Notes: a model not told the origin generated them from the sequence alone. A stretch of DNA of 64,000 nt from Gemmatimonadota bacterium (GCA_034521595.1 JAXHMG010000003.1:1-64000), one strand, 5' to 3'; numbered from the stretch's first letter, positions 606-34,110 are shown. A program made the numbers and translations.

Positions 606-632
606 GCCGCGGAGCCGGCAACATGCTTGTTA
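606..632 (-). repeat. Partial attC-like site (right-hand end only)
   Basis: ggccgcggagccggcaacatgcttgtta matches the repeat tail. The following gttatgagacgtcgccc is inverted to gggcgatgtctcataac ending at 1536. Confidence 0.75.
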
Positions 633-670
633 TGAGACGTCGCCCCCACCGCCTCGTTTCCCAGCAATCC

Positions 671-1247
671 TCAACGTTCTGGTGCCTCTGGACCGGACCT
701 TCTCAGCACCGAGTCCCATTCGGCTTGGAGTCCGAGCTCAGCGACCGATTTATCGAGATAAGCCCGATCCAACTGATCCCTACGCTGCTCTAGCATTCGA
801 ACGACGTCCGCTCGTTGAAGCTCGGAATCTCCCATCCGGGCCCACTCGAGCTTTGCGATCAGCACGTCCTCAAGACTCGCCAATGAGACTTCGATACCGA
901 GCAGATCAGCACGCTCGCGACGCTCGAATTCGGTTCTACTGAAGGAGCGATCCTTTCGGACGATCAGGTCGATCTTCCATCCCGATTCCGGATCGATCGC
1001 GTTGAACTGACCTTGCGTACGCCACGCATCGAGGGCGGCGTCCCGATCGACGTAGAGGCCGGCGTCCAAGAACCCCTGGACCAGCTTGTCCAGCCCCTGG
1101 TTCCTGGGTATCGATGACCACGTCGATATCCTGCGTGGCGCGAGGCGTGGCATAGTAGGCTGCAGCGAGTGAACCCGTGAGCATGTAGGGTACGCCAGCG
1201 CTTTCAAGAATTTCAGCGACCCGTTGCAGGAAGGAAGTGATGCTCAC
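671..1247 (-). CDS. Nucleotidyltransferase-fold toxin (MenT/Rv0078A-like), frameshifted
   Basis: VPYMLTGSLAAAYYATPRATQDIDVVID motif, then FNAID..KIDLIV..SLEDVLIAKLEW in a second frame. Confidence 0.7.
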
Positions 1248-1475
1248 TTCTCGGTGGGCAACTCGATCCCGTAGTCCTCCGCCACGAGTCGAGCGACAAC
1301 CTCCCGGGAGCTGAGTCAGGATGTCTGGCTCGCAGCCCAGCGAGACGGATCTCCCGGACCGTATCACTGAGTTCCAGGGCTGCCCGCAGGCGTGCCGGAC
1401 CATCCATTCGGTCCAAGACGGCATTGTACCTGGTCCATGCTTCCGGGTCGGTATCCAGGGGGCGTGAGGATCATG
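1240..1475 (-). CDS. Small antitoxin-like protein (Rv0078B/MenA1-like)
   Basis: RPLDTDPEAW..RMDGPARLRAALELSDTVREIRLAGLRARHP, upstream of the NTase; start uncertain. Confidence 0.55.
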
Positions 1476-1532
1476 CTCAAGATCTTAAACCCGCCAACAG
1501 GTACCTGCATGTACCGCACGGGCGATGTCTCA

Positions 1533-1681
1533 TAACGTTCAGATGTTTCCGACGTGGCCCCAGCACAGTCGGCTCACAGACTGGCCCCAGTCGGACACGC
1601 GCCACTCCGTTCACACGCGAAATCCTCCGGGCCATGTCGGTCGGAGCGACCGCAGGGAGCGGAGCCGGCAACACGTTGTTA
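1533..1681 (-). repeat. attC-like site
   Basis: taacgttcagatgtttccgacgtggccc...ggccatgtcggtcggagcgaccgcagggagcggagccggcaacacgttgtta. Confidence 0.9.
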
Positions 1682-1759
1682 TAGGACGTGGACTCGTCGA
1701 CGATCCTCCTGATCGATCCCGAAGAACACCCCATCCCCTCCGAACCTCCTTCAAAGAAA

Positions 1760-1960
1760 GCGACAGGCTTCTGAGCTCGGCTCCTTCGGCACGTGCAACC
1801 TGCTCCTCTTCGCACTCGGTGCAGAGGCCGTGGGTGACGTCCGTATCTCCCACCTTCTTCAGGTATGCACTGATGCCTTCCCATATCCCATTCTCCGTTT
1901 GGATGCGACCGCGGAAGGTCGAAGGCCGGGAGCCCGCACAGGCGTTGTTATCCGCTGCGC
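1760..1960 (-). pseudogene. C-terminal remnant of the PAS-domain cassette protein (paralog of 29120-29664)
   Basis: GRIQTENGIWEGISAYLKKVGDTDVTHGLCTEC is nearly identical to the C-terminus of the 29120 ORF. Confidence 0.7.
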
Positions 1961-2106
1961 CAAAGCCGGTCGCATATCGTCGGTTTGCGCAGGCTCCCCA
2001 AGACATCTCGTCGTGTCCCTGATCGATCGCTCGTGCAACCCGTGGCTCTACTCCGAGTCACGTGCGAGACGTCAGTGCCGTCTTCATGTCCTTCTCCCGC
2101 GTTCCC

Positions 2107-14195: not shown

Positions 14196-14267
14196 GGCCT
14201 ATCTCAGAACACCTCCCGTCCAACTCAGCTGCTGGTTACCCCCTTTTACCCCAGGCTCTATGTCATA

Positions 14268-14420
14268 TAACGTTCAGATGTTTCCGACGTGGCCTACCAT
14301 CAGAACCTCCGGAGCCGGCCACCCGTCATGAATACGGCTTAGACGCCCCCGCCGCCACACACGCTCCGGGCCATGTAGGGGGAGTGAGCGTAGCGAACGG
14401 ACCCGGAAACATACTTGTTA
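14268..14420 (-). repeat. attC-like site
   Basis: taacgttcagatgtttccgacgtggcc...ggccatgtagggggagtgagcgtagcgaacggacccggaaacatacttgtta. Confidence 0.9.
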
Positions 14421-14510
14421 TAGGACGTCGAGCCTCTACTCGACCTGCTTGTTCAGGAGTAGCCACCCCAATAACTTATCTGTTATTCATCGCATTCGGG
14501 TGTAGGCAAT

Positions 14511-15071
14511 ATGCCGCTTCCGGCCTTCACAGACCACGGCGTCCTCCCTCCTGGGGACCATCGACTCACGTTCGCTGAGCTGAAGGATTCGGTCCTCGTT
14601 CACGGGCCTGGCACTGCTGAATCCGAACGTTGGGATCCCGACTGGCGCCTCTTCCTCATCGAGCGCGCTGAGATCTTGGTCCAACAGCTCTGGGACGTGG
14701 GCATCGAGGACGTCTATCTCGACGGGTCGTTCGTCGAAGCGAAATCCCACCCGAACGACATCGACGGCTACTTCATCTGTGATGTCTTTGATTTCGCGTC
14801 CGGTGAACTACAGCACAAGCTGAACGCACGCGACCCTCACAAGGTCTGGACCTGGGATCCGGGCGAGCGCCGAGCGTACCGTGATTACGTGAAGAAGCAG
14901 CTCCCGATGTGGCACGTGTACCGAGTCGAGCTCTATCCCCACTACGGCCAGATTTCGGGGATCCAGGATGCACACGGTCACGATCTTTTGTTTCCCTCGG
15001 CCTTCCGGTTACAGAGAAACACCGATGCACCGAAGGGTATCATCCACATCATCCCGGAGGAGAGGACCTGA
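14511..15071 (+). CDS. Nucleotidyltransferase-like protein (DUF6932-like), putative toxin
   Basis: GVLPPGDH, YLDGSFVEAKSHPNDIDG, PKGII motifs. Confidence 0.75.
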   Translation: MPLPAFTDHGVLPPGDHRLTFAELKDSVLVHGPGTAESERWDPDWRLFLIERAEILVQQLWDVGIEDVYLDGSFVEAKSHPNDIDGYFICDVFDFASGELQHKLNARDPHKVWTWDPGERRAYRDYVKKQLPMWHVYRVELYPHYGQISGIQDAHGHDLLFPSAFRLQRNTDAPKGIIHIIPEERT

Positions 15072-15532
15072 TGATCCGATCCGAGCAGGAATATCAGAAG
15101 GCGCTCGAACGCCTGGAGAAGGATCAGGACGTACTCGTCGAGCAGCGCAAGCAGCTCGAGGATCTCGGACTCGGACCGGATGAGGTCGTACGCGCCCTCC
15201 AGCCACTCGAGTCGTTTCACGAGCAGCTTCGTGAAGAGGTCGAGGTCTACGAGCGCATGAGGCGAGGTGACCTTGGGGCGCTCCGAAACCTGACGAGCAT
15301 CGGCCGTTGGCTGATCGGAGTTCGGATTGCGAAGGGGCTCACCCAGCAGGAGCTGGCCGATCGGCTCGACGTTGCGCCGTCTCAGATCTCACGCGACGAG
15401 AGCAACGACTATCACGGCATCTCGGTCGAGCGCGCTCAGCGCATCCTCGAGGCACTCGGTGTCCGCTTCGAGGCCCATCTCACCGAACCCGTCCTCTCCG
15501 AAGCTGACCGTCGGGAACTAGTAGGCACCTGA
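15071..15532 (+). CDS. XRE-family HTH protein, putative antitoxin
   Basis: MIRSEQEY..RIAKGLTQQELADRLDVAPSQISRDE; translationally coupled to the upstream gene. Confidence 0.85.
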   Translation: MIRSEQEYQKALERLEKDQDVLVEQRKQLEDLGLGPDEVVRALQPLESFHEQLREEVEVYERMRRGDLGALRNLTSIGRWLIGVRIAKGLTQQELADRLDVAPSQISRDESNDYHGISVERAQRILEALGVRFEAHLTEPVLSEADRRELVGT

Positions 15533-21197: not shown

Positions 21198-21409
21198 CCG
21201 AGCCCGGCGTACCATTCTGCACAATGCGGATACCCGACGAATCGGTCACCACGGCCTCGGCGCGGCCAGCGGTTTGTGCCCTCTGGTCCACATGCCGACC
21301 CTAGGAGACTGAGAACCAGTGCTCCCGCTAGCTTCGGACTCTTCAATGGGGAAGCCTCCAGCTCAGTGATAGGTCAAACCCGGGATCCGACCCAACAACA
21401 CATGTCCCA

Positions 21410-21558
21410 TAACGTTCAGATGTTTCCGACGTGGCCACCACCAGAGCGTCCACGCTACCTCGCCGAGCATACGCTGCGACCTGCTCCTGCGCCACATTTG
21501 TCCGAGGCCATGTAGGTCGGAGCGAACGAAGTGAGCGGAGCCGGAAACATTCTTGTTA
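21410..21558 (-). repeat. attC-like site
   Basis: taacgttcagatgtttccgacgtggcc...ggccatgtaggtcggagcgaacgaagtgagcggagccggaaacattcttgtta. Confidence 0.92.
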
Positions 21559-21586
21559 TACGCCGTGCGCGTCCATGCAATAGCAC

Positions 21587-22246
21587 TCAAGAGGTTACTC
21601 TTGGCCTCGCGCGCAAAACGAGAGTTGGTACGCTCAGAACTTTAGGATCTTCAAGGAGTCCAGCTCTTAGCAGAGCTGCTCCCGCCAAGGAATGAACTTC
21701 TCCGTCCTCGATGGCGTGAGATGACCTGGGGTCGGGCAGGGCATCAACGAAGGTCCGTACGGCAATCGCAGCGTCCTCACCGTGAGCGTTCTCGGTACCC
21801 GAATATTTCGCGTCGCCGGTAACGAACGCCTCCCAAATGAAGAGACCCTCCAAAGCCGACTCAAATCGGCTCCAATCCACGAACCCCCTCACTTTACGAT
21901 CCACCCGTTCTGCGACGCGAGTCAGGATCCACGGGACTTGAATGGCGCCAAGAGTGAACACCGCGAGACCGGCCCCTGCTGACCACGCCCGATTCCCTTC
22001 GCCAGACCGGGCCAACATCATGTCGTGGACCGAAACTCGCACAGGGATGTAGAGCGGACATTCGAAGCCCAAGGCGACCTTTGAGCCCGTGCTCAGGTCG
22101 GCTGCGACGGCTGTAGCCAAGTCATCCGGCGAGAGACCAAACCGGATCTCCTCTGGATGGCTCGTCTGTGCGCGGGCCCACCCGAAACGCCCTCGCTTCA
22201 CCGACCCGATGTCGGCGCAATAGACAACCATTTCTGAGCCGTTCAC
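21587..22246 (-). CDS. Hypothetical protein, possible RNase H-fold nuclease (DUF429-like)
   Basis: VVYCADIGS..VALGFECPL..WEAF..EDAAIA pattern; clean ORF filling the cassette. Confidence 0.6.
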   Translation of the reverse strand: MNGSEMVVYCADIGSVKRGRFGWARAQTSHPEEIRFGLSPDDLATAVAADLSTGSKVALGFECPLYIPVRVSVHDMMLARSGEGNRAWSAGAGLAVFTLGAIQVPWILTRVAERVDRKVRGFVDWSRFESALEGLFIWEAFVTGDAKYSGTENAHGEDAAIAVRTFVDALPDPRSSHAIEDGEVHSLAGAALLRAGLLEDPKVLSVPTLVLRARPRVTS

Positions 22247-22250
22247 CGGA

Positions 22251-22592
22251 TCAAGGCACGAGCTGGAAACGATTCTCTGTCAATCGGACCAGCTCCATCT
22301 CGGGCGGGTGGCCGCGAGGCCATTCGAGGTTACGGTGCTTCGCTAGCCATTCCCGGATCACCGGGCGACCGCGGTCGCGGATTTCCGGACATTGGTTCCA
22401 GAATCCAGGAGTGATCGAGAAGCTCTGACGCTCTCCGTCGAGCTCGATCTGAACTTGCTCCCAGTCTTGATCGAAATAGCGGTCGCGTTGCCGCGCGCCA
22501 ATCCGGAGCCCATAGGTCCGCCCACCATTGTTCCAGGCCGTGACTCGCAGCCGTCCGTTTTCTCGTTCCATCCTTGGTCTACTCCCACCCAA
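22251..22592 (-). CDS. Hypothetical protein
   Basis: Trp-rich ORF (VTAWNNG..YGLRI..FWNQCPEIR..WPRGHPP), 4 bp upstream of the next gene. Confidence 0.7.
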   Translation of the reverse strand: MGGSRPRMERENGRLRVTAWNNGGRTYGLRIGARQRDRYFDQDWEQVQIELDGERQSFSITPGFWNQCPEIRDRGRPVIREWLAKHRNLEWPRGHPPEMELVRLTENRFQLVP

Positions 22593-22603
22593 AGCATGGC
22601 GTA

Positions 22604-22756
22604 TAACGTTCAGATGTTTCCGACGTGGCCCACCACCGCTCCCGGGGGAGCTGGCCGCCCGTCATGAATACGGCTTAGACGCTCAACCCGCCACACACGC
22701 TCGGGGCCATGTAGGTGGAGCGGGCGCAGCCCGCGTAACCGGAAACATTCTTGTTA
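22604..22756 (-). repeat. attC-like site
   Basis: taacgttcagatgtttccgacgtggccc...ggccatgtaggtggagcgggcgcagcccgcgtaaccggaaacattcttgtta. Confidence 0.92.
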
Positions 22757-22853
22757 ACTGACGTGTGCCGTGGACCGAGTAGGCAAGAGGTACGGATCGC
22801 CTGTCGGATGGTTTTCACGACCTTCCCTTGGCGGTTGCTGCGAGAGCCAGGCG

Positions 22854-23138
22854 CTACCGCTCTGGCAACTCCTGACGCACGTGGCTCAAGGTGAGGATCT
22901 CGACCTGCTCGGGCGAGACCTCGTAGATGACGCGGTAGGGCTCGTAGAAGATCTCGCGGACGGTTTCGTCACCCCACTCGGGCACGATACGCCCCTGATC
23001 GGGAAGGTCTCGAAGTAGCTCGACCCTCTCGGCGAGACCCTCCAACCATTGGACTGACACGAGCGGACGATCCTTTTCGATGAAGTCGACCGCTTGCTGC
23101 GCTTTCCGCCTGGCCGTGGGCGACCAGACGATTCTCAC
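22854..23138 (-). CDS. RelE/ParE family toxin
   Basis: MRIVWSPTA..FIEKDRP..PDQGRIVPE..REIFYEPYRVIY. Confidence 0.9.
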   Translation of the reverse strand: MRIVWSPTARRKAQQAVDFIEKDRPLVSVQWLEGLAERVELLRDLPDQGRIVPEWGDETVREIFYEPYRVIYEVSPEQVEILTLSHVRQELPER

Positions 23139-23425
23139 CGCTTCAGCCTTGAGCGCAATTCAGCGACGACCTCGTCGTGTGCGATGCCTTCCCCACGAGC
23201 CAACTCAGCCCGAGCGTCCCGGATGTCGTGGATGAGCTCGACCTGTTGGACCAGGGCCTCGTATTCATCGACATCGAGAACGACCGCAGCGCTTCTGCCG
23301 TGTTGGGTCAGGACTAGCGGACGCTTCGTAGCGCGGACCTGCTCGAGGAAGCCCGCAGCATTGGCCCGAAACGCGGAAAGTGGCTGAACATCTTGGCTAG
23401 GCTTCAAGGGTCGGCGCGCCTCCAT
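23135..23425 (-). CDS. Phd/YefM family antitoxin
   Basis: PLSAFRANAAGFLEQVRATKRPLVLTQHGRSAAVVLDVDEYE. Confidence 0.9.
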   Translation of the reverse strand: MEARRPLKPSQDVQPLSAFRANAAGFLEQVRATKRPLVLTQHGRSAAVVLDVDEYEALVQQVELIHDIRDARAELARGEGIAHDEVVAELRSRLKR

Positions 23426-23523
23426 GGTACTCTGTATGGTACCACGAACAGTACCGACAGATGGCCTGTCTGGCAACTTCCTGCCAACTCCTTCCGGAAT
23501 CCGACCTAAAGGCACATGTCAGT

Positions 23524-23672
23524 TAACGTTCAGATGTTTCCGACGTGGCCACCACCGAAACATCCGAGTGACCTGCCCGAGCATACGGTGCGATCTGCTC
23601 CCGCGCCACGATAGCCTGAAGGCCATGTAGGGGGAGCGAGCGCAGCGAGCGGACCCAGAAACATACTTGTTA
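23524..23672 (-). repeat. attC-like site
   Basis: taacgttcagatgtttccgacgtggcc...ggccatgtagggggagcgagcgcagcgagcggacccagaaacatacttgtta. Confidence 0.92.
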
Positions 23673-24088
23673 TAGGACGTTGGCCTCCGCCACGCCTACC
23701 CAACCCTTACGACCGAGAACCAGTCGTACCGCTCGGCGTCGGCGGGCCCCCTTCGGAGGAAGGCGCGGCTCAAGAAGGAACCGAGTTCAGAGTCCCCGAG
23801 CGAGGTAACAGCGTTGCGGGTGTGGGATCCCGAGGATGGGAGCCGCGCCCAACTCCAGAACCTGGCCCCGGCGACGCGGGGTGCCTCCGACGATGGGGTG
23901 CCGAGGTTACTGAGCCTCGTGGAAACGAAGGAGCTGCGGGCTTGGCGTCGGCTCCAGACTGAGGCGCGAGCCGGAAACAACAAGTGCCCCCGCAGGGGGC
24001 AAGGGGGTAGCACGGGGTCGCGAAGGTGAAGGGCATCGGTCAGCGGGAGCCGACGCAAAGAACCACAACCGCTCGGGCCAATGTTCTA
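23673..24088. other. ORF-less cassette, possible structured RNA
   Basis: No recognisable protein; several short hairpins; intact cassette terminal inverted repeats. Confidence 0.5.
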
Positions 24089-24238
24089 TAACGTTCAGAT
24101 GTTTCCGACGTGGCCATCACCGGCCGGTCCACGCGAACCTGCTCGAGAATACGCTGCACCTCGTTCCCGGGCCACACTCGTCTGAAGGCCATGTAGGTGG
24201 AGCGGGCGAAGCCCGCGGAACCGGAAACATTCTTGTTA
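24089..24238 (-). repeat. attC-like site
   Basis: taacgttcagatgtttccgacgtggcc...ggccatgtaggtggagcgggcgaagcccgcggaaccggaaacattcttgtta. Confidence 0.92.
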
Positions 24239-24357
24239 TCGGAAGTCGGGCCGCGCTTCCAGGTTCAGCCTGGTAATCGCTCGAATCAGCTTCTCCGAAT
24301 TTCTCTAGACCCCGACCTCGCGCTCACAGTGTCCTTGAGGTTCCTACCGGGTCAAAC

Positions 24358-24861
24358 TTAGGACCCGGTAGGGACGCCGAGTTGACGGCGGAGCCCGAGT
24401 TGATCATCCACCTCCCAGAGTTCCACCATTCGGTCGCCCTCGAAGCGCATAAACATCATCACTGCCATCTCGACCTGTTCACCGGTGGCATCCAAATCGA
24501 GCCACGGCGCTTCGTGAGTTCCTGTGAGGGTAGCTCGAACTGCGACCCGATCTCCCTCCACGACCAAGTCGTTGATCTCCATCCTCAAGTCCGGAAACGC
24601 TTGTCGCCACCGGATCACGGCTGAAGTCAACTCCGCCCGCGTGACGATTCGCACGTCTCCCGCATAATCAAAGCGTACGGTATCTGCGACGGTCTCCGAG
24701 AAGACCGCGACGTTCCCTTGACTCCAGCCATCGCCGAACGTCCGCTCGACTACCGCTCTGAGATCAGAAGCCGATTGGCGTTCTTCTCCCGTGCACCCGA
24801 GACCGATCGTAGCAATGATCAGCAGCAGGACTGTGCACGACCACGTCTGTCGATACTTCAT
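24358..24861 (-). CDS. SnoaL-like ester cyclase family lipoprotein
   Basis: AFPDLRMEINDLVVEGDRVAVRATLTGTH..ATG..LGLRRQLG; lipobox GLGC. Confidence 0.88.
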   Translation of the reverse strand: MKYRQTWSCTVLLLIIATIGLGCTGEERQSASDLRAVVERTFGDGWSQGNVAVFSETVADTVRFDYAGDVRIVTRAELTSAVIRWRQAFPDLRMEINDLVVEGDRVAVRATLTGTHEAPWLDLDATGEQVEMAVMMFMRFEGDRMVELWEVDDQLGLRRQLGVPTGS

Positions 24862-24959
24862 CGCGTCTCCGTTCCGATCGAACTGCAACGCGCTTGAGCG
24901 TAGTCGAGCCACGCTTCCCGATTCAGCATGACCATCGCTCCGGTTGGTTTTTCCGAAGG

Positions 24960-25070
24960 TCTCTTTTCGTCTGAGAGCAGAGCAGGGGCCAGCTGAATAA
25001 ACGCACCCTCCCCGAGACTCTTATACCTACGATACTCGCCCTCGAGGAAGCCGACCCTCGCGCGTCCCAT
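24960..25070 (-). pseudogene. Possible DUF1572-like N-terminal remnant
   Basis: EYRRYKSLGEGAFIQL motif. Confidence 0.4.
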
Positions 25071-25154
25071 GACGTCCTCGCCTGACGACCCACAACCCAC
25101 CAAATCGATGGTCGAACCCGTCCGCTAACTCCCGAACCCAGGCCCGATTTCCGA

Positions 25155-25305
25155 TAACGTTCTTGTGTTGCCGACGTGGCCCACCACCAGCGGGCTCACA
25201 AATCGGCTACCGGGGAATACGCGCCACCCCGTTCTCGCGCTATAAACGTCTCGGGCCATGTAGGTCGGAGCGAACGAAGTGAGCGGAGCCGGCAACACTT
25301 TGTTA
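25155..25305 (-). repeat. attC-like site (variant arms gtgttgccg/cggcaacac)
   Basis: taacgttcttgtgttgccgacgtggccc...ggagccggcaacactttgtta. Confidence 0.92.
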
Positions 25306-25402
25306 TCTGATGTGCACTCCGCCGCTCTTCGACTCTGCCACCTCCGGCGTTCCGCGCGGATCACTGTACCGAAGAAACGAAAGAAGGGGGCATCGCGATC
25401 TT

Positions 25403-25864
25403 CTAACTTTCGGCCGCGTGGACTACGACCGAGCGTACAATGTCCATGGAGGCGCCGTCCGGGTCTCTAGTGCGGACACGTACCTCTGCCTCGCCGGACG
25501 TGTCAAAACGCACCGCGGCGCGATGCTCGTAGTACACTCGCGGTGTGGTGCATGACCCTTCTCGGAACCGATCAAACGGGGTCACGATGGCCACTGCTCC
25601 GGAAACCTCTACTTCGGTTCCGTCCATAGATGAGCATCCGTTCCCGAATGTGACGACAACGACATCGAAACTCTCTCCTACCAAGGCCGATGCAGGAACT
25701 TCCACTCGGCTCTCGGGATCAGCCAAGTCCACGGTGCCGATCACGCGATTGGTTTCGGGCCCGAAGATGCCACACCCCATACTCAGCAGTGATAACACCG
25801 CTAGAACGCCGACCGGCCAAGGGATGCCAGGGAGCGCTGCTCGTTTCGGTCGCTGACGATTCAT
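25403..25864 (-). CDS. Hypothetical lipoprotein
   Basis: Signal peptide with lipobox SMGC; RBS ggagg upstream. Confidence 0.75.
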   Translation of the reverse strand: MNRQRPKRAALPGIPWPVGVLAVLSLLSMGCGIFGPETNRVIGTVDLADPESRVEVPASALVGESFDVVVVTFGNGCSSMDGTEVEVSGAVAIVTPFDRFREGSCTTPRVYYEHRAAVRFDTSGEAEVRVRTRDPDGASMDIVRSVVVHAAES

Positions 25865-26046
25865 AGAAGCCTCCAGAGGAGAGTAACCCTACCTCACTCT
25901 ATCTGATACACGCCGGCAGGCGCAACGGCGCATAACATACTTGCGACATGTGCGGATACACTGTATAGGTGGGCGGGGTCCGGCGTGCAGCGCTTCGCAG
26001 ACTGACCTGCGCGAGACGGGCCAGCCCTTCCAGCTAAGGAGAGTCT

Positions 26047-27702
26047 GTGAAGATGTGGATGCCCGACTCACTCTGCCGTCGCACCCGGTACGTAGGTTGC
26101 CTCCTGGGATCTCTTTTGTTCGCGGCATGCTCGGAGGTCACAGAAGTCACCGTCGATGATGCCGCTGTCTACTCCGCCGACGTTCTCGCCGATGACTCTG
26201 AGATTCAAAGCTACTTCCACGGCGAGGAGCGATTCGTCGAGCTTTCGAGGGAGTTCCCATCGTTCGCCGGTTTCTACGTTGAGGACGAAACCCTGGTGGT
26301 CCTCACGGCTGAGGGACCTGACTCGGAGAATATCGGTAGTGCCGCCGCCATCACGTATGCCGCGCACGAGGCGGTCGCAGGGCGTGTGGCAGCCACCGAT
26401 GTGCGATCCGTGCCCTTCTCTTTCGCTGATCTTAGCGGCTGGAGGAACGCGGCCTTCCAGGCCGTGATAGCGCTGGATGATGTGGCGATACTCGACCTTG
26501 ATGAGCGAGCTAACAAGGTATTCGTCGGGCTGGAGACCGGTAGTCAGCGAGACCAGATCCTTACCGCGCTCGAAGAGGCCGGAATCCCCAGCGACGCGGT
26601 CCAAGTCGAAGTTGTCGGTCCGAATCGGACGAGCGCGACGTTGCTCTCCCGAGTACGTCCGCTCCTCGGGGGGCTCTACACCACGAGCATTGGGACCACA
26701 GGACAGACGCAGAGCTGCACCTACGGCTTCAATGCAGTGTTGAACAGCACTGATGTGTTCATCACCAACTCGCATTGCACGCGCCAGCAGTTCGCCGATG
26801 ATGTAACGCCAGTGAGTCTCTACCAGACCCTTCACGGATATTCGACCACATTGGTAGGGACAGAGTACTCGGATCCCGATGGCTGGGATTGTACGCCCTG
26901 GTACCAGCCTTGGTATCCCGACAACTGTCGGAACAGCGACGCTGCAGCAATCGAGTTGGTCGAGGATAGCGTGGACTTCGGTTACATCGCTCGAACCGCG
27001 TCCCGTGCGACCGGGTCTGCGCAGGGATCCAAGACTATCGATTCGAACGCGCCCCGATTCTTGATCGAAGGGAAGGACGCTTACCCCTATATGGGGCAGG
27101 AAGTCAACAAGATGGGGCAGGCCAGTGGATGGACCTATGGAGATGTCGACCGAACGTGCTTCACTGCAACATTCAAGCCCAGCGGCGACGATATAACCGG
27201 AGGAGACAACGACTTTCGTGTCCTCTGTGCCTACCAGGCGGACTATCGGAGTCAGAGCGGCGATAGTGGCGCACCGGTGTTTCTCTGGGCCGGAGGAAGC
27301 GCGGGTGTCTACCTCCAGGGCCTCAACATGGGTTCCAACGACGATTACGGTGGAGGCGCAGGGAAAGGGATCTTCAGTTCGATGTCGGGTATCGAACAAG
27401 ACCTCGGAACACTGGACGTCACCGACTACGTACCACCGCTAACCGGCGTTTACATCGCCGGACCCTATACCGTGCAGGCATACTCTAACTGCACGTGGCA
27501 AGTCTTCCATTCCGGTGGAGTAGGGCCGTTCTCTTACTCGTGGTCCGGGGTTCTGAGCGGATCAACCTCACTGCCTTACATATCGGGGTCGATTGGGTCA
27601 TCGGGTTACCTGAATGTGACTGTCACCGATTCGAACAATCAGCAGGATTCCGACTCCTTTTACATCACTGTTGACGCTCAAGCCGATCCCTGCGTCGAAT
27701 AG
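26047..27702 (+). CDS. Secreted S1 (alpha-lytic/streptogrisin-like) serine protease with pro-region and C-terminal Ig/PKD-like domain
   Basis: Catalytic motifs FITNSHC, NSDAAAI, SGDSGAPVF; lipobox FAAC. Confidence 0.85.
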   Translation: MKMWMPDSLCRRTRYVGCLLGSLLFAACSEVTEVTVDDAAVYSADVLADDSEIQSYFHGEERFVELSREFPSFAGFYVEDETLVVLTAEGPDSENIGSAAAITYAAHEAVAGRVAATDVRSVPFSFADLSGWRNAAFQAVIALDDVAILDLDERANKVFVGLETGSQRDQILTALEEAGIPSDAVQVEVVGPNRTSATLLSRVRPLLGGLYTTSIGTTGQTQSCTYGFNAVLNSTDVFITNSHCTRQQFADDVTPVSLYQTLHGYSTTLVGTEYSDPDGWDCTPWYQPWYPDNCRNSDAAAIELVEDSVDFGYIARTASRATGSAQGSKTIDSNAPRFLIEGKDAYPYMGQEVNKMGQASGWTYGDVDRTCFTATFKPSGDDITGGDNDFRVLCAYQADYRSQSGDSGAPVFLWAGGSAGVYLQGLNMGSNDDYGGGAGKGIFSSMSGIEQDLGTLDVTDYVPPLTGVYIAGPYTVQAYSNCTWQVFHSGGVGPFSYSWSGVLSGSTSLPYISGSIGSSGYLNVTVTDSNNQQDSDSFYITVDAQADPCVE

Positions 27703-27879
27703 GGATGGCTGGAGCATAGCCCCCGGTCACGGGGCCGTTTAGTAAGCGGCGATATCGGCAGAAGTGAGCGGGAGTTCCCCAGACCTATCTGTGGCAAATG
27801 GGGGACTCTCGCTTGCTTCAATAGGCATAGCCATAGAAGGATAAGCAGTACAATCGGACCCCAAGGAGTGCATTTCAGA

Positions 27880-28033
27880 TAACGTTCAGATGTTTCCGAC
27901 GTGGCCCAGCACGGATCCTGCCGACCGTGTCTACCCGTCATGAATACGGCTTAGGCGCTCACCCCGCCACACCCGTTCCGGGCCATGTAGGCCGGAGCGC
28001 CCGCAGGGCGCGGAGCCGGAAACATACTTGTTA
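27880..28033 (-). repeat. attC-like site
   Basis: taacgttcagatgtttccgacgtggccc...ggccatgtaggccggagcgcccgcagggcgcggagccggaaacatacttgtta. Confidence 0.92.
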
Positions 28034-28099
28034 TGTGATGGTGAGCCACGTTCCCCCTCCGGCACCGAGGTCATCGCTCCCGTCCGCGAACCCCTATTC

Positions 28100-28468
28100 T
28101 CAGTTCGCTTCAGGCCATTCGTCCTTGGCCAACTCGTCGAGTACGGATTGGAGTGGACCTGAAATTCTCTCGACCTCCACGGACGCCACCTTCCAGATCA
28201 TTCGGAGATCGACCCCCAGATAGTCGTGGATCAACCGATGTCGAAGTCCCGTAATCTGTGGCCAGGGTATGTTCGGGAATCGAGCGCACGTCTCACGGGA
28301 GATTCGGCCCGCCGCCTCCCCCAGGATCTCCAGTTGACGGATCACAGCGTCCTGGGTGATTTCGCTCGACTCGAATTCCTCCCACTCCACGTCGTCGATG
28401 TGACGCTGCAGTCGGGCTATGGCATCGAGCATGTGGCGAACGTAGACAGATTCATCCCGTCCGCTCAT
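28100..28468 (-). CDS. HEPN toxin (HepT/DUF86)
   Basis: AVIRQLEILGEA..IPWPQITGLRHRLIHDY (R-X4-H). Confidence 0.92.
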   Translation of the reverse strand: MSGRDESVYVRHMLDAIARLQRHIDDVEWEEFESSEITQDAVIRQLEILGEAAGRISRETCARFPNIPWPQITGLRHRLIHDYLGVDLRMIWKVASVEVERISGPLQSVLDELAKDEWPEAN

Positions 28469-28742
28469 AGATCACCGACGTTGAAGCAAGAATCCGGTCC
28501 CGGAGATACGGACTGAGTGCCGGCTCAGTCAGGAGGTCCACATCACGTCCGAGGAACTCCTCGAGTTCCAACTCGAGCCCGATCAAGTCGAACAGACTCT
28601 TGTCCCCCTCGAACTCCACAAGGAGATCGATATCGGAATCCGGCCGGTCATCACCACGGACAGCCGAGCCGAAGAGCTTGAGCACGCGCACATCGTGCTT
28701 CTTGCAGAGCTCGGCGAGGCGAGCCTCATTGATCTGGACCAT
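28452..28742 (-). CDS. MNT minimal nucleotidyltransferase antitoxin
   Basis: LFGSAVRGDDRPDSDIDLLVEF..LGRDVDL. Confidence 0.92.
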   Translation of the reverse strand: MVQINEARLAELCKKHDVRVLKLFGSAVRGDDRPDSDIDLLVEFEGDKSLFDLIGLELELEEFLGRDVDLLTEPALSPYLRDRILASTSVIYERTG

Positions 28743-28877
28743 GACCGGAATGTGCCGATCGGTGGGGTAGGGGTCAACGAAATCCTCCGTCCGTGCACCT
28801 GATCCGGGTTCCGCCACTTCCAGAGTCCCGTGTTTCCCGAACCTGCCGGCAGTCCACGATCCAGGCTCACTTTCACA

Positions 28878-29034
28878 TAACGTCTTCTTGTGTTGCCGAC
28901 GTGGCCCATCACCAGATGGCTCACAAACCGGCTGAACGAGGATGCGCGGCACCTCGTTGCCGCGCCACAACAGCTCAGGGCCATGTAGGTCGGAGCGGAC
29001 GCGCAGCGGCCGCGGAGCCGGCAACACTTTGTTA
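28878..29034 (-). repeat. attC-like site (variant arms)
   Basis: taacgtcttcttgtgttgccgacgtggccc...ggagccggcaacactttgtta. Confidence 0.9.
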
Positions 29035-29119
29035 TCGGACGTGGACTCGTCGACGATCCTCCCGATCGATCCCGAAGAACACCCCGTCCCCTCCGGGCCC
29101 CTTCAGGAAAGCGAAGGAG

Positions 29120-29664
29120 CTAGGCTCCCTCGGCGCGTGCGATTTGTCCGTCTTCGCACTCGGGGCAGAGGCCGTGGGTGACGTCCGTGTCTCCCATTCT
29201 CTTCAGGTATGCGCTGATGCCTTCCCATGTCCCGTCCTCCGTCTGGATTCGGCCACACCAAGCGCACATCGGAAGGAGCCGCTTTACCTGCGCGAGCTCG
29301 TCCTCGACGGCCTTGCGGCCGGTGATGTCACTCGTCCTGATCACGGCTCCGACGATCTGCGCTCCTTCGGACAAGGGCGTTACATCGGCTCCGAACCAGG
29401 CTGCTGAACCATCCGGAAGGGCCACCTGTACTTCATACTGGACGGCTCCACCCCTCAAACACCCGATCTAAAGCATCCTCAGCAACTTTCCGAGATTCGG
29501 CAGAGAGTATCTCGAAACTGCTCATTCCGATCGGTTTTCAACCCGTAGCCTGGCTCGACACGATTGATGTATCGGATGATCCGATCGCGATCGACGATCA
29601 GAATGAATTCGGGAAGGCCCGCGAGGGCTTGCCGTAGCATGCCGTCGTTGATAGAAAGCGTCAT
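29120..29664 (-). CDS. PAS-domain protein with C-terminal CxxC..THGLCxxC motif (frameshifted)
   Basis: LPEFILIVDRDRIIRYINR; SDITGRK..LLPMCAWCGRI..THGLCPEC. Confidence 0.75.
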
Positions 29665-29764
29665 AGTATCCTCTTGAGGTACCGATACGTTGACGGCTCA
29701 CGAAGCGACCCGCAATCCTTCGTTTCCTCGTCGGCCCGTCCACCGTCGACGAGTCCATGTTCGA

Positions 29765-29915
29765 TAACGTTCAGATGTTTCCGACGTGGCCCCAGCATAT
29801 GCGCTCATCTTTCCTGAGACCTTCGGAGTGCAGCTGACAGCTTACGATGCCCGAACGCTCGAGGCCATGTAGGTCGGAGCGAACGAAGTGAGCGGAGCCG
29901 GAAACATTCTTGTTA
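29765..29915 (-). repeat. attC-like site
   Basis: taacgttcagatgtttccgacgtggccc...ggagcgaacgaagtgagcggagccggaaacattcttgtta. Confidence 0.92.
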
Positions 29916-30905
29916 TCTGACGTGGCGCCCAACCGCCGGGATCCCCGTCCAAATAGCAAGCTTCAACTGAGATGGCACGGGAAGTAGATCCAACTCGCGG
30001 ACCAGAAAATCCATGATCGTTCCGTGCTGGAGCAATTCCACTCCCGGAACCTGAGTGTCCCTATATGGACGCTTCGCCGTGGAAAACAGATACACCGTCC
30101 CGGACTCGGCCATTGGAGCGAAACTGGCAGGGTCCAACGTCTTGGTCTTCCCGGACTTCACCTGTACGTAACCAGTTAGCGTCCCATCAGTCGACCTCTT
30201 TCGCAGGATGCACTCAGTATCTCGCTGGCTCCGGTAGGTAGACGACTTGATGATTCGCCACCCCAGATCCTGTTGTAAATAGAGGCATACCAAGTCTTCG
30301 ATCTCATCGGCGTCGAGAACTGAGAAGATTTCGGTGGCAGCGCGACTGCGCAGAGCCTCCGAAAGGCGCACGCGAGTCTCGGCGGTCAACCCCCGCGAAA
30401 TTGACGAACTGTCTCCGAAGACGACCGCTGAATAGGCGCACCACTCTTGATCCTGAGTAATCTTCTGCGCAGTGCCATACATCGTCAGTTTACGACGAAC
30501 GATTCCGGGGACTAGGACCTCGTCTACTTCGCGCCATTCTGCTCGGCGCACATTGTGGATGTCGTGATCCCTCCATTCTGTCCCGTCGCGGTACTCCCAA
30601 TCACCGAGGATCTTGGCGATGAAGTACTTCCCGCGTCGGTAGAGCCAAACATGATCGCCGATCGCCGCACGGTTCGCTATCACGTTCATGCCCACCGGAA
30701 ACCTTCCACCTCGTTCGGCCTTGAACGCCTGCCGCACCAGTCGCCCCTCCAGGGGAGGATTCTCGAAGCGCCACCCGATGCCGATTAACCCTTGCCCCAT
30801 ACAGAATGCGAACGAGTCCGCCTCCGGGTCGGCCTTTCCTCGCGGATCGATTGTGAGCTTCCACAACGATCGTGGTATCGAAGGGATCACTGGTGTGTCA
30901 GTCAT
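29913..30905 (-). CDS. Mrr-like restriction endonuclease (putative)
   Basis: N-terminal IGIGW..IGDHVW..GDWEY..VRRAEW domain; C-terminal EDLV..YLQ..GW..VQVKSG. Its TAA stop is part of the site's TAAC. Confidence 0.7.
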   Translation of the reverse strand: MTDTPVIPSIPRSLWKLTIDPRGKADPEADSFAFCMGQGLIGIGWRFENPPLEGRLVRQAFKAERGGRFPVGMNVIANRAAIGDHVWLYRRGKYFIAKILGDWEYRDGTEWRDHDIHNVRRAEWREVDEVLVPGIVRRKLTMYGTAQKITQDQEWCAYSAVVFGDSSSISRGLTAETRVRLSEALRSRAATEIFSVLDADEIEDLVCLYLQQDLGWRIIKSSTYRSQRDTECILRKRSTDGTLTGYVQVKSGKTKTLDPASFAPMAESGTVYLFSTAKRPYRDTQVPGVELLQHGTIMDFLVRELDLLPVPSQLKLAIWTGIPAVGRHVR

Positions 30906-30922
30906 GTTCGAGCCATGTCAGA

Positions 30923-31077
30923 TAACGTTCAGATGTTTCCGACGTGGCCCGACCACGGGTCCTGCCGACGGTGTCTACCGGTCATGAATACGGCTTAGGC
31001 GCTCACCCCGCCACACCTGTTCCGGGCCATGTAGGCCGGAGCGCCCGCAGGGCGCGGAGCCGGCAACATACTTGTTA
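30923..31077 (-). repeat. attC-like site
   Basis: taacgttcagatgtttccgacgtggccc...ggagcgcccgcagggcgcggagccggcaacatacttgtta. Confidence 0.92.
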
Positions 31078-31163
31078 TAGGAAGTTGAGCCACGCTCGCA
31101 GGTTCAGTCAGCCGACCGAGCCCTCCCGCTGGAATATATGCCTCTTGTGACATATACTACTCT

Positions 31164-31505
31164 ATGAGTCCAGACGACAAGATTCTGGTGTGGCTATCCG
31201 GAGAGGTGAGAACCCCTCCGTTCTCCGACGAAGCTCGGCTTGAAGCAGGCTTCCTTCTTCGGCGGCTCCAGCAGGGAGAGAAGCTCAGCCTCCCTCATTC
31301 CCGGCCGATGCCCTCAGTCGGGCGAGGGTGTCATGAGCTTCGGATCGTCGATCAAGGCATCACGTGGAGAATCATGTACTACGTCGATGCGGACGCCATC
31401 GTGATTCTGGACGTGTTCAAGAAGAAGACCCGGGCAACACCGAAGAAGGTCATCGAGGTGTGCAGGGAACGGCTTCGGGACTACCGAAGTGTCCGGGACA
31501 GCTGA
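31164..31505 (+). CDS. RelE/HigB-like toxin (Gp49/DUF891 type)
   Basis: EAGFLLRRLQQGE..PHSRPMPSVGRGCHELRI..WRIMY..FKKKTRATP. Confidence 0.9.
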   Translation: MSPDDKILVWLSGEVRTPPFSDEARLEAGFLLRRLQQGEKLSLPHSRPMPSVGRGCHELRIVDQGITWRIMYYVDADAIVILDVFKKKTRATPKKVIEVCRERLRDYRSVRDS

Positions 31506-31516
31506 GGAGGAAATCC

Positions 31517-31849
31517 ATGGACACCAAGACCAAGAAGAAGCTCGAAGCCGGCGGATGGAAGACCGGCGACGCCCGAGACTTCCTCGAGCTGTCGGACGCC
31601 GAGGCCGAGTTCATCGAGATGAAGCTGGCTCTCGCCCAGGATCTCCGGGCCAGGCGCTTGGAGCGGCACTTGAACCAGACTCAGCTGGCCCGGATTGTTG
31701 GGTCGAGCCAGTCCAGAGTAGCCAAGATGGAAGCGGCCGACCCGACTGTCTCAATCGATCTCCTGGTCAGGTCGCTCCTGAAGCTCGGCGCTGCACGGAA
31801 GGACTTGGCCAAGGCTTTGTCCGAGGGCCCACACCGAGCTGTGAGTTGA
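31517..31849 (+). CDS. XRE HTH antitoxin
   Basis: KKLEAGGWKTGDARDFLEL..LNQTQLARIVGSSQSRVAKME. Confidence 0.9.
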   Translation: MDTKTKKKLEAGGWKTGDARDFLELSDAEAEFIEMKLALAQDLRARRLERHLNQTQLARIVGSSQSRVAKMEAADPTVSIDLLVRSLLKLGAARKDLAKALSEGPHRAVS

Positions 31850-31921
31850 CTCCTTTACAGGGGATCCAACCCAATCACGGAGCCTACCCGCTCTAATCCC
31901 GAACCTGGGCTCAATTTCCTA

Positions 31922-32076
31922 TAACGTTCAGATGTTGCCGACGTGGCCCACCACCGCTCCCGGGGGAGCCGGCCACCCGTCATGAATACGGCTTAGGCGC
32001 TCACCCCGCCACACCCGTTCCGGGCCATGTAGGCCGGAGCGCCCGCAGGGCGCGGAGCCGGCAACATACTTTGTTA
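31922..32076 (-). repeat. attC-like site
   Basis: taacgttcagatgttgccgacgtggccc...ggagccggcaacatactttgtta. Confidence 0.92.
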
Positions 32077-32539
32077 GCGGATGTTGGCGTCCTGTGGTCC
32101 ACGAAACACTTACGGTCGACGTCACGAGGAACGTCGCGTCGACGGCTATCCGTTCCGGTGGTTCGACCCCAAACGGAAACCCCGCGGACACACGGTCGAG
32201 GGATCGCGCGAAGGGAGCCCAGGGAGCGAGCAGACCGAAGGTGTAACCCCAGCCGACCGAAGATGCCTCGGAGCGGGTGAACGCGCGATTCACCAAAACC
32301 TCTTTGGCGCCGTCGACGAAGAACCTGCCGGGTGGACATCGCAGCCGTGGATCGAGCCCGCCCGACTGTGTGGAGCCACACGGGGGGAGGGACAGCGGCG
32401 AATCCATAGGGTGGTGGGCGTGACTCGGGCCGAAGGTGCGAACCCAACTGACCGTAGATGCCTCGGACGAAGTCACTGCACGAGAACCTGAACGCGTCGC
32501 CGCTGTCCTCGAACCTGACCATCCATGGCCAATGTCCGC
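32077..32539. other. ORF-less cassette with internal 38-bp direct repeat, possible structured RNA
   Basis: Copies at 32235-32272 and 32430-32467 (32/38 identical); no recognisable protein. Confidence 0.55.
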
Positions 32540-32691
32540 TAACGTTCAGATGTTTCCGACGTGGCCCACCACCGCTCCCTCCGGAGCCGGCCGCCCGTCA
32601 TGAATACGGCTTAGGCGCTCACCCCGCCACACCCGATCCGGGCCATGTAGGGGAGCGAGCGCAGCGAGCGGACCCGGAAACATTCTTGTTA
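32540..32691 (-). repeat. attC-like site of the first cassette
   Basis: taacgttcagatgtttccgacgtggccc...ggagcgagcgcagcgagcggacccggaaacattcttgtta. Confidence 0.92.
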
Positions 32692-32770
32692 TGGGACGTG
32701 TGTTGTCGCTCGGCGAGTCACCATGCTCCCCGCTCCACAAGAGCATGACCACGATTCCCTTACGGCTTGG

Positions 32771-33961
32771 TTAGTTCCAACATGACCACCGCCGGCACGT
32801 CGAGCTCATTGAGGCGAACAGCCAAGATGTGCGTATCCGTGATGTCGAGCAGAGCGTGACGTACCCTGGCAGTTCGACCCATCCTTGTAGCGTCCCGTCA
32901 CGAGTAATGACACGCCATCTGTCCGGGGGTTGGATGGGAAGGCCGTACTGGCCCAGCCACACGTTACCGACCCTATCTACATGGAAACCGTCCCAGTAGG
33001 GCAAAGGCCCGTCATGTCGATCCAGGCCTTCCTCCAGTCTTGCGATCTCAGCGTTGATGAAGGCCTCTTCGGCACCGCGGGCGGCGTAGGCCTCGCGGTA
33101 GGCTTGCGCCATATCCTGCTCCCAATCCGGAGTCAACGGAAACGGCTGCTCCTCCCAATGCGCGACCTGCAGCAGACGCCCCGAACTGTCGTACCAAGTG
33201 ACTTCCGGACGATCCGAACGTGCCCAGGCAAACCCGTCGGCAAACCCTCCCGCGCGACCCTTGACCGAAATGGGTCCAGGCCCTGCTCCGCGGGTCCCGT
33301 ACCACCGTCTGAGATGAGGCAACTCGGCCAAGGTATCCGTTTCGGCCTCGACGAGATCAGTAATGAGGATCGGCTGCATCTCGAAAACCCATTCGGGCCG
33401 CATTTCAGATACCCCGCTGTAGCCGTCTCCGGGTACGAGAAGAACACGCCCGTCAGCAAATGCAGATGAGGCGTAGTGGAGGAAGCTGCCCGGAAGGGGC
33501 TCAGTGGCCACTACTTCTCCCTCCCTCGAGAGGACCGTGATTCGCCGGAGCCTCCCGTCCGTCACAATGACTGAGTCGCCTTGCAAGATCAGCGCATCAA
33601 GGCCCTGATACTCCCCGGGACCTTCTCCCTTGCGGCCCCATACCTCCAGCACTGTCCCGTCGGGGGCGAGCCGATAGATCTTCCCTTCGCCGTACTCACC
33701 GATGAGTGCCCCACCATCCGGCATGATCTGGCCTGACTGCACCCAGGTGAACGTCGGATCACCAGCCGCCCAACCGAGTGAGAAAAGAGGCTCCGAATTG
33801 GCGGTCCACTCCGCCGAGCCCGGCGTACCATTCTGCACAATGCGGATACCCGACGAATCGGTCACCACGGCCTCGGCGCGGCCAGCGGTTTGTGCCTCTG
33901 GTCCACATGCCGACCCTAGGAGACTGAGAACCAGTGCTCCCGCTAGCTTCGGACTCTTCAA
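32771..33961 (-). CDS. Secreted beta-propeller lipoprotein (first cassette; probable frameshift near C-terminus)
   Basis: Lipobox GSAC, DSSGIRIVQN, WGRKGEGPGEY. Confidence 0.8.
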   Translation of the reverse strand: MKSPKLAGALVLSLLGSACGPEAQTAGRAEAVVTDSSGIRIVQNGTPGSAEWTANSEPLFSLGWAAGDPTFTWVQSGQIMPDGGALIGEYGEGKIYRLAPDGTVLEVWGRKGEGPGEYQGLDALILQGDSVIVTDGRLRRITVLSREGEVVATEPLPGSFLHYASSAFADGRVLLVPGDGYSGVSEMRPEWVFEMQPILITDLVEAETDTLAELPHLRRWYGTRGAGPGPISVKGRAGGFADGFAWARSDRPEVTWYDSSGRLLQVAHWEEQPFPLTPDWEQDMAQAYREAYAARGAEEAFINAEIARLEEGLDRHDGPLPYWDGFHVDRVGNVWLGQYGLPIQPPDRWRVITRDGTLQGWVELPGYVTLCSTSRIRTSWLFASMSSTCRRWSCWN

Positions 33962-34024
33962 TGGGGAAGCCTCCAGCTCAGTGATAGGTCAAACCCGGGA
34001 TCCGACCCAACAACACATGTCCCA

Positions 34025-34110
34025 TAACTGTTTATTTCCGAATCAACGTGTCGGGTTGCCCCGTTGGGGGCGTGGGGTTTCCGACGTTGATGGTCCCGTG
34101 GATAACAGGC
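34025..34110 (-). other. Candidate attI-like primary recombination site
   Basis: The first cassette end (catgtcccataac) is followed by non-repeat sequence; identity with the 21410 copy stops exactly at TAAC. Confidence 0.7.

Follow-up and report, generated by a model that had tools for sequence, protein, structure and literature searches.

The window studied here spans the 64 kb at the start of contig C3 in a Gemmatimonadota genome of 3.49 Mb (G000, 93% complete; G+C 65.5%) and contains an array of cassettes (~600-34028) separated by repeats of ~150 nt. This is probably an integron-like array running leftward from an attI-like junction at 34028, next to which lies the gene for an IntI-like tyrosine recombinase of 399 aa (P0001; 34259..35458, - strand, 3' end toward the array) without the IntI-specific insert. 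Cassettes of this array bear terminal inverted repeats of their own whose eleventh position is fixed as a G·T wobble on one strand, and both the long repeat and the wobble correlate, across a lineage of Gemmatimonadales, with the insert-less type of integrase. The observation behind the original prediction is confirmed and extended, and its interpretation is partly supported. The interpretation that we rate somewhat better than even is that each repeat represents the R arm of the attC belonging to its cassette, being whole only in the excised circle, and that the wobble is a lineage-specific mark of the bottom strand.

Own-cassette repeats and the wobble at position 11

Terminal inverted repeats were scored by script in 16 cassette bodies of the window, with positions counted inwards from GTTA at the left end and TAAC at the right end. 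An own repeat of 14-25 bp was present in 15 of these bodies, the exception being an interrupted body (1678-14271). On the + strand, the arms pair over 17 bp in body 629..1536 (629-645/1520-1536; wobble G639·T1526) and over 20 bp in 14417..15567 (14417-14436/15548-15567; wobble G14427·T15557). A wobble at position 11 is likewise found in the arms of 21555..22607 (21555-21568/22594-22607, 14 bp), 22753..23527 (22753-22769/23511-23527, 17 bp), 24235..25158 (24235-24252/25141-25158, 18 bp), 29912..30926 (29912-29926/30912-30926, 15 bp) and 31074..31925 (31074-31091/31908-31925, 18 bp). It is accompanied by a second wobble at position 9 in 16743..17552 (16743-16760/17535-17552, 18 bp), at position 8 in 23669..24092 (23669-23685/24076-24092, 17 bp) and 29031..29768 (29031-29055/29744-29768, 25 bp) and at position 10 in 32073..32543 (32073-32088/32528-32543, 16 bp), and by a T·T at position 10 in 25302..27883 (25302-25320/27865-27883, 19 bp) and 28030..28881 (28030-28047/28864-28881, 18 bp). 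The first cassette, which adjoins the attI candidate (32688..34028; arms 32688-32706/34010-34028, 19 bp, wobble at position 11), has the same arms as a 3.7-kb body at 17698..21413 (17698-17716/21395-21413, 19 bp, wobble at position 11). All seven pairs listed in the original prediction were recovered with identical coordinates and letters, whilst its length range of 14-22 bp fell short of the 25 bp observed.

G at position 11 of the left arm was opposite T on the right arm (i.e. A in the reverse complement) in 15/15 own pairs, as had been predicted, and this mismatch is strand-asymmetric, the + strand having G·T where the - strand has A·C. Inclusion of the rest of G000 and of a genome from the same genus (G243) extended the G/A difference to 63/63 bodies. 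Stems of ≥14 bp were present in 59/63 bodies of these two genomes, and the stems minus position 11 contained 977 matches, 24 + strand mismatches of the G·T type, 13 transversions and no transition of the opposite kind. The complementarity is specific to the own cassette: in the window, the mean identical run from position 13 was 6.0 in the 15 own pairs versus 0.55 in 210 non-own pairs, positions 5-7 were identical in 100% of own pairs versus 47% of non-own pairs, and positions 13-18 in 88% versus 37%.

One arm reads GAC-G-T and its counterpart ATGTC at positions 8-12, which are conserved between cassettes, and the motif GTTANNNGRMGT occurred in 12 copies in the window versus 0.69 expected from shuffles. 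Past position 12 the sequence retains a weak family consensus (e.g. GAGCC) and is not wholly cassette-specific. The prediction that the sequence differs for each cassette hence holds for positions 5-7 and from 13 onward but fails for positions 8-12. As these positions are conserved across cassettes and genomes, they, including the wobble, would form part of the recombinase-binding arm, leaving only positions 5-7 and 13 onward private to the cassette. Two other sources of the fixed G/A difference were considered and discarded, namely CpG deamination, as position 10 is not always C, and an ACGT methylation or restriction site, as position 12 varies. Nor do the arms resemble the terminal repeats of transposons or miniature inverted-repeat transposable elements, since they differ beyond the conserved core and start exactly at the attC R-box GTT/AAC (no search for target duplications was made).

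A comparison with canonical integron cassettes, which had been proposed as a test of the feature, was performed with a cassette rule that reads positions 1-10 only and is blind to position 11 onward (i.e. GTTA...TAAC 150-4500 nt apart, ≥5/6 identity at positions 5-10, choice of the nearest partner and presence of a neighbour in the array at 40-220 nt); an earlier, looser rule was discarded for giving ~1400 chance pairs. The same rule was applied to arrays downstream of insert-less recombinases (138 unique cassettes in 16 Gemmatimonadales genomes, with 18 of 22 sources having ≥1 cassette) and to arrays of canonical IntI from the same order (39 unique cassettes; 9 of 13 sources, L127-L139). Median stem length was 17 bp (interquartile range 15-19) in the former and 12 bp (interquartile range 11-13) in the latter. 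Position 11 was a bottom-strand wobble in 132 insert-less and two canonical cassettes, a transversion in four and seven, identical in two and 29, and a top-strand wobble in none and one, respectively, and no fixed mismatch was present in the 39 canonical cassettes. Position 12 was identical in 132/138 insert-less versus 20/39 canonical cassettes and position 13 in 128/138 versus 10/39. Other transition mismatches at positions 8-15 comprised 37 bottom-strand wobbles versus five top-strand wobbles. Up to 16 or more cassettes lay within 12 kb of an insert-less recombinase. Among loci L016-L062, only L017 gave hits with this rule, besides two chance pairs in L056. Three loci of Acidobacteriota and Phycisphaerae (L020, L023 and L027), where the rule likewise finds nothing, contain repeats that were rejected as not being of the window kind.

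Mobile cassettes of class 1 and class 3 integrons were sampled from seven plasmid records (L070-L076; 21 entries, ~18 distinct cassettes), for which IntI3 from pQ7 served as the query, a plasmid search with P0001 having yielded an unrelated 'integron integrase' without an array. Perfect own complementarity extended over 4-13 bp and reached 12-13 bp in nine of the 21 entries (aadA2, aacA4, aac(6')-Il, psp, qacL, catB3 and blaGES), at which length the stems ended abruptly; none of the 21 exceeded 13 perfect bp or carried a fixed mismatch. In aadA1, both mismatches within 12 bp are bottom-strand wobbles. Canonical cassettes therefore have neither the stem length nor the fixed mismatch of the window, and the outcome named in the original prediction as refuting it did not appear in this comparison. 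The 7-bp complementarity attributed to them is correct as a published description of the R box, with strand selection ascribed to the spacer, extrahelical bases and terminal structure (Nivina 2016; PMC8946536), but both class 1/3 and chromosomal cassettes are complementary to themselves over 11-13 bp.

The inverted repeat flanks a body and is, on its own, silent as to which attC belongs to that body and which strand is the top strand. Array orientation was deduced from the 3' end of the recombinase gene together with the non-attC junction at 34028. In the 16 genomes oriented by their recombinase gene, the position-11 wobble lay opposite the coding strand of that gene in 132/138 cassettes and the other way round in none, a uniformity that identifies the + strand of the window as the bottom strand. 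The attC at the left (in window orientation) was the more similar one in 17/21 pairs of cassettes with like bodies, most of which are one repeated 255-bp cassette, and this travelling of the left attC with the body indicates the same orientation. Finally, the + strand carries the G·T pairs and the covarying side hairpin described below, as would be expected of a strand selected to fold. The + strand of the window is thus the bottom (folding) strand, and the top strand of the array is the - strand, in the same direction as the recombinase gene. The strand asymmetry of the original prediction stands, with the correction that the + strand is not the coding or top strand of the array.

A G·T mismatch in DNA would be a G·U in RNA, which is a normal pair, and the repeats could in principle close each cassette message for stability or processing in transcripts of + strand sequence. 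Three toxin-antitoxin-type cassettes confirmed by Pfam are indeed coded on the + strand. Three other Pfam-confirmed cassettes, and the longest frames in several more, lie on the - strand, where the RNA would have A·C; moreover, the arms abut the recombination crossover exactly and the feature tracks the type of recombinase. A function in RNA is accordingly very improbable.

Structure of the attC sites and maintenance of pairing

Complete attC sites of ~150 nt, read on the + strand (i.e. with the bottom strand shown), were located at 1532..1682, 14267..14421, 17548..17702, 21409..21559, 22603..22757, 23523..23673, 24088..24239, 25154..25306 (with the L-box variant GTTGCC/GGCAAC), 27879..28034, 28877..29035, 29764..29916, 30922..31078, 31921..32077 and 32539..32692. 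Alignment of these 14 sites (151-159 nt) revealed the layout of integron attC sites, consisting of an R box (AAC/GTT), an unpaired spacer of 6 versus 4 nt, an L box, a further stem and a variable loop. The general repeat reads ATAAC-GTTCAG-ATGTTTCCG-ACGTGGCC ... GGCCATGT-AGG-small hairpin-GGAGCCGGAAACAT-(A/T)CTT-GTTAT, of which the site at 17548..17702 is an example (ATAAC-GTTCAG-ATGTTTCCG-ACGTGGCC...GGCCATGT-side hairpin-CCGGAAACAT-TCTT-GTTAT, with a second fixed G·T, ACGT/ATGT, inside). The L box of 8-9 bp covaries (GTTTCC/GGAAAC versus GTTGCC/GGCAAC, and ATG/CAT versus GTG/CAC). Beside it, a second fixed G·T, in which ACGTGGCC is paired with GGCCATGT, was present in 14/14 attC sites of the window. 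A dyad relates the R arm, GTTAT-NNG-ACGT with ATGT-CNN-ATAAC, to the L arm, GTTTCCG-ACGT with ATGT^CGGAAAC.

The L box of the window sites is fully paired, and a side hairpin of ~30 nt is located on the 3' arm. The stem of this hairpin covaries, and it has loops of the GCA/GAA type with tandem G·A on the + strand, such loops generally being especially stable. Extrahelical single bases beside the L box, spaced ~6 bp from each other, which in canonical integrases are read by the I2 insert, were not found in the attC sites of the window. In a rough parse of predicted folds, a side helix was predicted for 79/91 attC sites of insert-less arrays versus 4/25 canonical sites, and bulges of 1-2 nt on the 3' arm for 37/91 versus 20/25. 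One genome, G184, holds both systems, i.e. a canonical array (L127) and an array beside an insert-less recombinase (L108); in its canonical attC sites, single bases bulge out of the bottom-strand 3' arm at a spacing of ~6 bp, and those of the insert-less array have a fully paired L box, the wobble and the side hairpin. A search of the order with a 15-mer attC pattern, in which one mismatch was allowed, was uninformative, as background matches occurred in 289/301 genomes, above which only G000 and G243 stand out.

As the original prediction had proposed, the long stem can close only when the cassette ends meet, both arms residing in one cassette. In the array, the R box pairs at the conserved positions only (1-4/5, 8-9, 11 and 12). 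For circle junctions assembled in silico, the predicted fold was favoured by ~11 kcal/mol over that of the attC between its array neighbours, in 13/13 cassettes and on both strands. Metagenome contigs over 14200-34199 break at the attC repeats and contain no circle junction, which, for contigs only, is neither support nor counter-evidence. In run X3, which consists of contigs that a different study obtained from a sediment metagenome, attC ends were matched at high summed depth and joined across other bodies, and the attC family seems to occur in that sample with different cassettes.

The repeat might be a relic of cassette making, such as a palindrome laid down together with the attC, having no present function and a position 11 that is merely consensus. 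The origin of cassettes is described as unknown by Cury 2016; canonical cassettes also have own repeats of 11-13 bp, and stem length here varies between 14 and 25 bp, all of which would suit a relic. The fate of the stems in related cassettes points the other way. Position 12 of the 59 stems of ≥14 bp in G000 and G243 was T in 45, C in seven, G in six and A in one, and was paired in 59/59. Forty-six pairs of cassettes with homologous bodies provided 598 comparisons at positions 5-18 (minus 11), which are non-independent and include some partners mis-chosen by the nearest-partner rule; 332 were unchanged, 156 had one arm changed, 76 had both arms changed and still paired, and 34 had both arms changed otherwise. 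Clean changes of both arms were found in the 255-bp family of G243 (positions 12, 14, 15, 16 and 18) and in two cassettes of G066 (locus L122; positions 6, 7 and 16). A position 12 that varies but always pairs, together with the changes on both arms, argues for selection for pairing, and the private positions 5-7 and 13 onward appear, from these alignments, to be kept paired by compensatory change. Decay would not preserve pairing in diverged homologous cassettes, as in the 255-bp family, and would give both kinds of transition rather than 37 versus five. A relic without function is hence improbable. Cassettes of 253-257 bp recur at least 10 times in G243 (L063-L065) and are too short for most genes.

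A tyrosine recombinase without the IntI-specific insert

P0001 contains the SAM-like and catalytic domains of tyrosine recombinases, with catalytic motifs that align with those of VchIntIA (PDB 2A3V). Residues 173-239 of VchIntIA are replaced by 25 residues in P0001, leaving a gap of 42 residues, so that the IntI-specific additional domain (~40 residues; the I2 region near patch III) is lacking. On the integron integrase model TIGR02249, P0001 scored 213.5 bits in two stretches (cut-off 265) with model positions 174-234 unmatched, and on the XerA model NF040815 it scored 210 bits (cut-off 220). In an alignment, the corresponding region spanned 64-65 residues in 16/16 enzymes of the P0001 type (64 in P0001 itself) versus 104-105 in 13 canonical IntI (11 from the same order plus IntI1 and IntI3), and 67-69 in two Xer-like proteins of G000. 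The 16 enzymes are P0001 and 15 relatives located upstream of like arrays, the insert-less loci being the window (34259-35458, - strand), L017, L078 and L107-L125.

Relatives of P0001 at E ≤ 1e-70 were detected in 58/301 genomes and 41/106 genera of the order (one of the 58, G081, is flagged unpublished). Many were at contig ends with the 3' end toward the break, as expected beside a repeat array. Canonical IntI above the family cut-off was found in 60/301 genomes (including G002, G095 and G156, flagged unpublished), and this search of 301 genomes found none in G000 or G243. In a rapidly computed tree from which the insert columns had been removed, canonical IntI formed one clade with a Shimodaira-Hasegawa-like approximate likelihood ratio (SH-aLRT) of 100 and the insert-less enzymes fell outside it, between this clade and Xer, the order of branches at the base being unsettled in a small tree with two outgroup proteins.

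The anatomy, cassette specificity, strand and lineage distribution of the repeats and their correlation with integrase type are shown by the comparisons above, and could be combined as follows. Each terminal inverted repeat would be the R arm of that cassette's own attC. Recombination would cut inside the R box (AA|C, bottom strand) and carry one half of the arm to the far end of the cassette, such that both halves reunite only in the excised circle, where the attC hairpin would gain a stem of 14-25 bp. Positions 2-12 would be the recombinase-binding arm conserved across cassettes, with the wobble as its tenth base pair on the bottom strand. We infer from the sequences that the enzyme reads this wobble: G·T may mark the strand and the cleaved arm for a recombinase without the I2 insert, and ~5 extra base pairs may hold the arm shut around it. 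Because the chimeric R arms within the array are weaker, the circle should be a better substrate than the array sites. The directionality switch proposed in the original prediction would be a hypothetical further role of the stem.

Several points weigh against this interpretation. It is founded on sequence comparisons of contigs. Total folding energy had no strand preference (mean -0.5 kcal/mol; + strand lower in 6/13 cassettes), and 6/138 cassettes of insert-less arrays lacked the position-11 wobble. The wobble of the L arm, unlike the nearly universal one of the R arm, is not a constant of the lineage: judged by eye on one attC per source, it was present in eight of 16 genomes, absent from seven and ambiguous in one, and a strict test requiring exact 6-mer pairing, which proved too strict, scored G·T in 14/91 attC sites and G·C in three, leaving 74 unscored. 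Of the four like-body pairs that contradict the left attC, two are the only between-genome pairs, and these lie within background similarity. At least 19 genomes of the order hold both types of recombinase, and there canonical IntI could act in trans. Lastly, the I2 insert is necessary for IntI activity according to the title of Messier & Roy (2001) and is presented by Escudero 2020 as the innovation that enabled single-strand recombination.

Given these reports on I2, an insert-less enzyme might not use folded DNA at all. Each attC end (R''-spacer-L'' or L'-spacer-R') would then be a dif-like core for Xer-like double-strand recombination, with no hairpin, and the G/A difference would only tell the half-sites apart. 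P0001 scores as well on XerA as on IntI, each attC end can be parsed into a pair of inverted 11-12-bp arms separated by 6-8 nt of spacer, and double-strand recombination is described as the ancestral activity by Escudero 2016 and 2020. Such a scheme does not account for complementarity that is private to the cassette at positions 5-7 and 13-25 or for its compensatory change, nor for transition mismatches almost exclusively on one strand, and leaves the covariation of L''/L', stem 2 and the side hairpin without explanation. Further, Xer/dif systems have a single site per replicon, and the L-arm pattern of attC was matched at least 23 times in G000 and 47 times in G243, in arrays, whilst G000 has separate Xer-like genes at C3:609815 and C3:1178572. 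Double-strand recombination of this type is consequently unlikely.

Within the preferred interpretation of an own R arm with a bottom-strand mark, it is possible, although we would hesitate to expect it, that Gemmatimonadales carry a second, undescribed kind of integron, in which the integrase never had or has lost I2 and the attC is recognized by the bottom-strand G·T of the cleaved arm and the side hairpin instead of extrahelical bases; from their place in the tree, these enzymes could represent a pre-I2 state.

Array context and relation to known systems

The attI candidate occupies 34022..34110 (no strand assigned; boundaries approximate and deduced). CCATAAC at 34022-34028 is a lone R half-site and is followed by non-attC sequence with a copy of the attC L-arm motif, GTTTCCGACGT; by this resemblance the last ATAAC (ending at 34028) would mark the junction of attI with the first cassette. 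The junction in G243 is alike (ATAAC-TGGTTAT-TGCCGAA...GATTTCCGACGT), and similar junctions occur in several other genomes. Within 34040-34095, a G-rich loop is enclosed by the inverted repeat ATCAACGTGTCGG/CCGACGTTGAT, and the attI region may itself fold or contain two inverted binding sites.

Cassette content is usual for integrons, comprising toxin-antitoxin pairs, a SnoaL-like protein and open frames without a family. DUF6932 and an HTH protein (14417..15567), HigB/HigA (16743..17552) and a Gp49-like toxin with its partner (31074..31925) are coded on the + strand, and Phd/ParE (22753..23527), the SnoaL-like gene (24235..25158) and a HepT-like gene (28030..28881) on the - strand. The array is interrupted by 12.6 kb of non-cassette DNA at 1678-14271, the left flanking cassette end of which equals that of cassette 29031 and the right one that of cassette 16743-17552; these two ends do not match each other. 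This segment includes a histidine kinase gene (2107-3123, - strand), a piece of a Mutator/IS256-family transposase (3379-4074), an IS3-type HTH_21 piece (7535-8101) and a piece of an amino-acid permease. Two attC sites are degenerate, one at 15563-15737 that ends in CTTAGAG rather than GTTA and one at ~16590-16747 without ATAAC. Between them lies a 17th body (~15731-16600) in which, by eye, the open frames look broken and no arms are recognizable. Orphan clusters of the same attC family are found in G000 away from the recombinase at C3:1010017-1025235, 1449697-1449839 and 1505079-1518715 and in the last 4 kb of C1, a contig that may continue the array beyond the contig break.

No account of an extended R arm, of an attC wobble or of arrays whose integrase has no additional domain was found in the literature searched, many papers of the field and supplements being outside that search. 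Neither 'mismatch' nor 'wobble' occurs in the passages seen of a 2024 Science Advances paper, and Fig. S1 of Cury 2016 is cited as showing four recombinases between IntI and Xer, which may bear on novelty. Nemergut 2008 selected integrases by the additional domain and Cury 2016 called them by PF00589 plus an IntI-specific profile. Since surveys select integrases by the IntI-specific domain, a lineage without it escapes their notice, and its arrays end up among the orphan attC clusters. The larger result is the company in which the wobble occurs, i.e. integron-like arrays of one lineage with an integrase devoid of the hallmark domain. If the recombinase is active, the I2 helix would not be the sole route to recombination of a folded attC, the lineage would be a natural test case for the evolution of integron integrases from Xer-like enzymes, and the signature (A/G at position 11 within an own stem of ≥14 bp) could be used to find such cassettes in metagenomes. 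Were the pre-I2 state true, single-strand recombination of cassettes would have operated without the domain believed to enable it. Pairing of the ends of ordinary cassettes over 11-13 bp, and not 7 bp, bears on the design of synthetic attC sites and excision substrates.

The window array shares with canonical IntI arrays, including those of the same order (L127-L139), a tyrosine recombinase adjoining an attI (in the window a candidate attI), small cassettes, many of them toxin-antitoxin, between imperfect palindromes with AAC...GTT, an unpaired central spacer and an L box, and first cassette bases that complement the far side of the own attC. It differs in an integrase without the IntI-specific insert, in attC sites with a side hairpin and without single-base bulges 6 bp apart, in an own stem with a median of 17 versus 12 bp and in a G·T at position 11 that is fixed only in the window lineage. 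The mobile class 1/3 cassettes are similar in that the cassette start complements the own inverse core well beyond the 7-bp R box, but their perfect stem is ≤13 bp and has no conserved mismatch. Xer/dif sites consist of arms of ~11 bp flanking a short central region, an Xer-type monomer binding one such arm, and this arm length fits the 11-13 bp of canonical cassettes. Xer and archaeal XerA resemble P0001 in protein length, absence of an insert and score (210 bits for XerA), but Xer acts on one double-stranded site per replicon, whereas each array of the window lineage holds tens of sites that show covariation in their hairpins; G000 also has separate XerC/D-like genes. The direction of the recombinase gene, which is that of the array's top strand, is the 'inverted' arrangement mentioned for Treponema by Cury 2016. 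By the published rule (PF00589 plus an IntI-specific profile), the window array would probably be filed as a cluster of attC sites lacking an integron integrase (CALIN; Cury 2016) beside a non-IntI recombinase. The recombinases neighbouring such clusters are, in the same source, scattered in the tree and beside <3 attC sites, whereas here the linkage between recombinase and array extends across 16 genomes.

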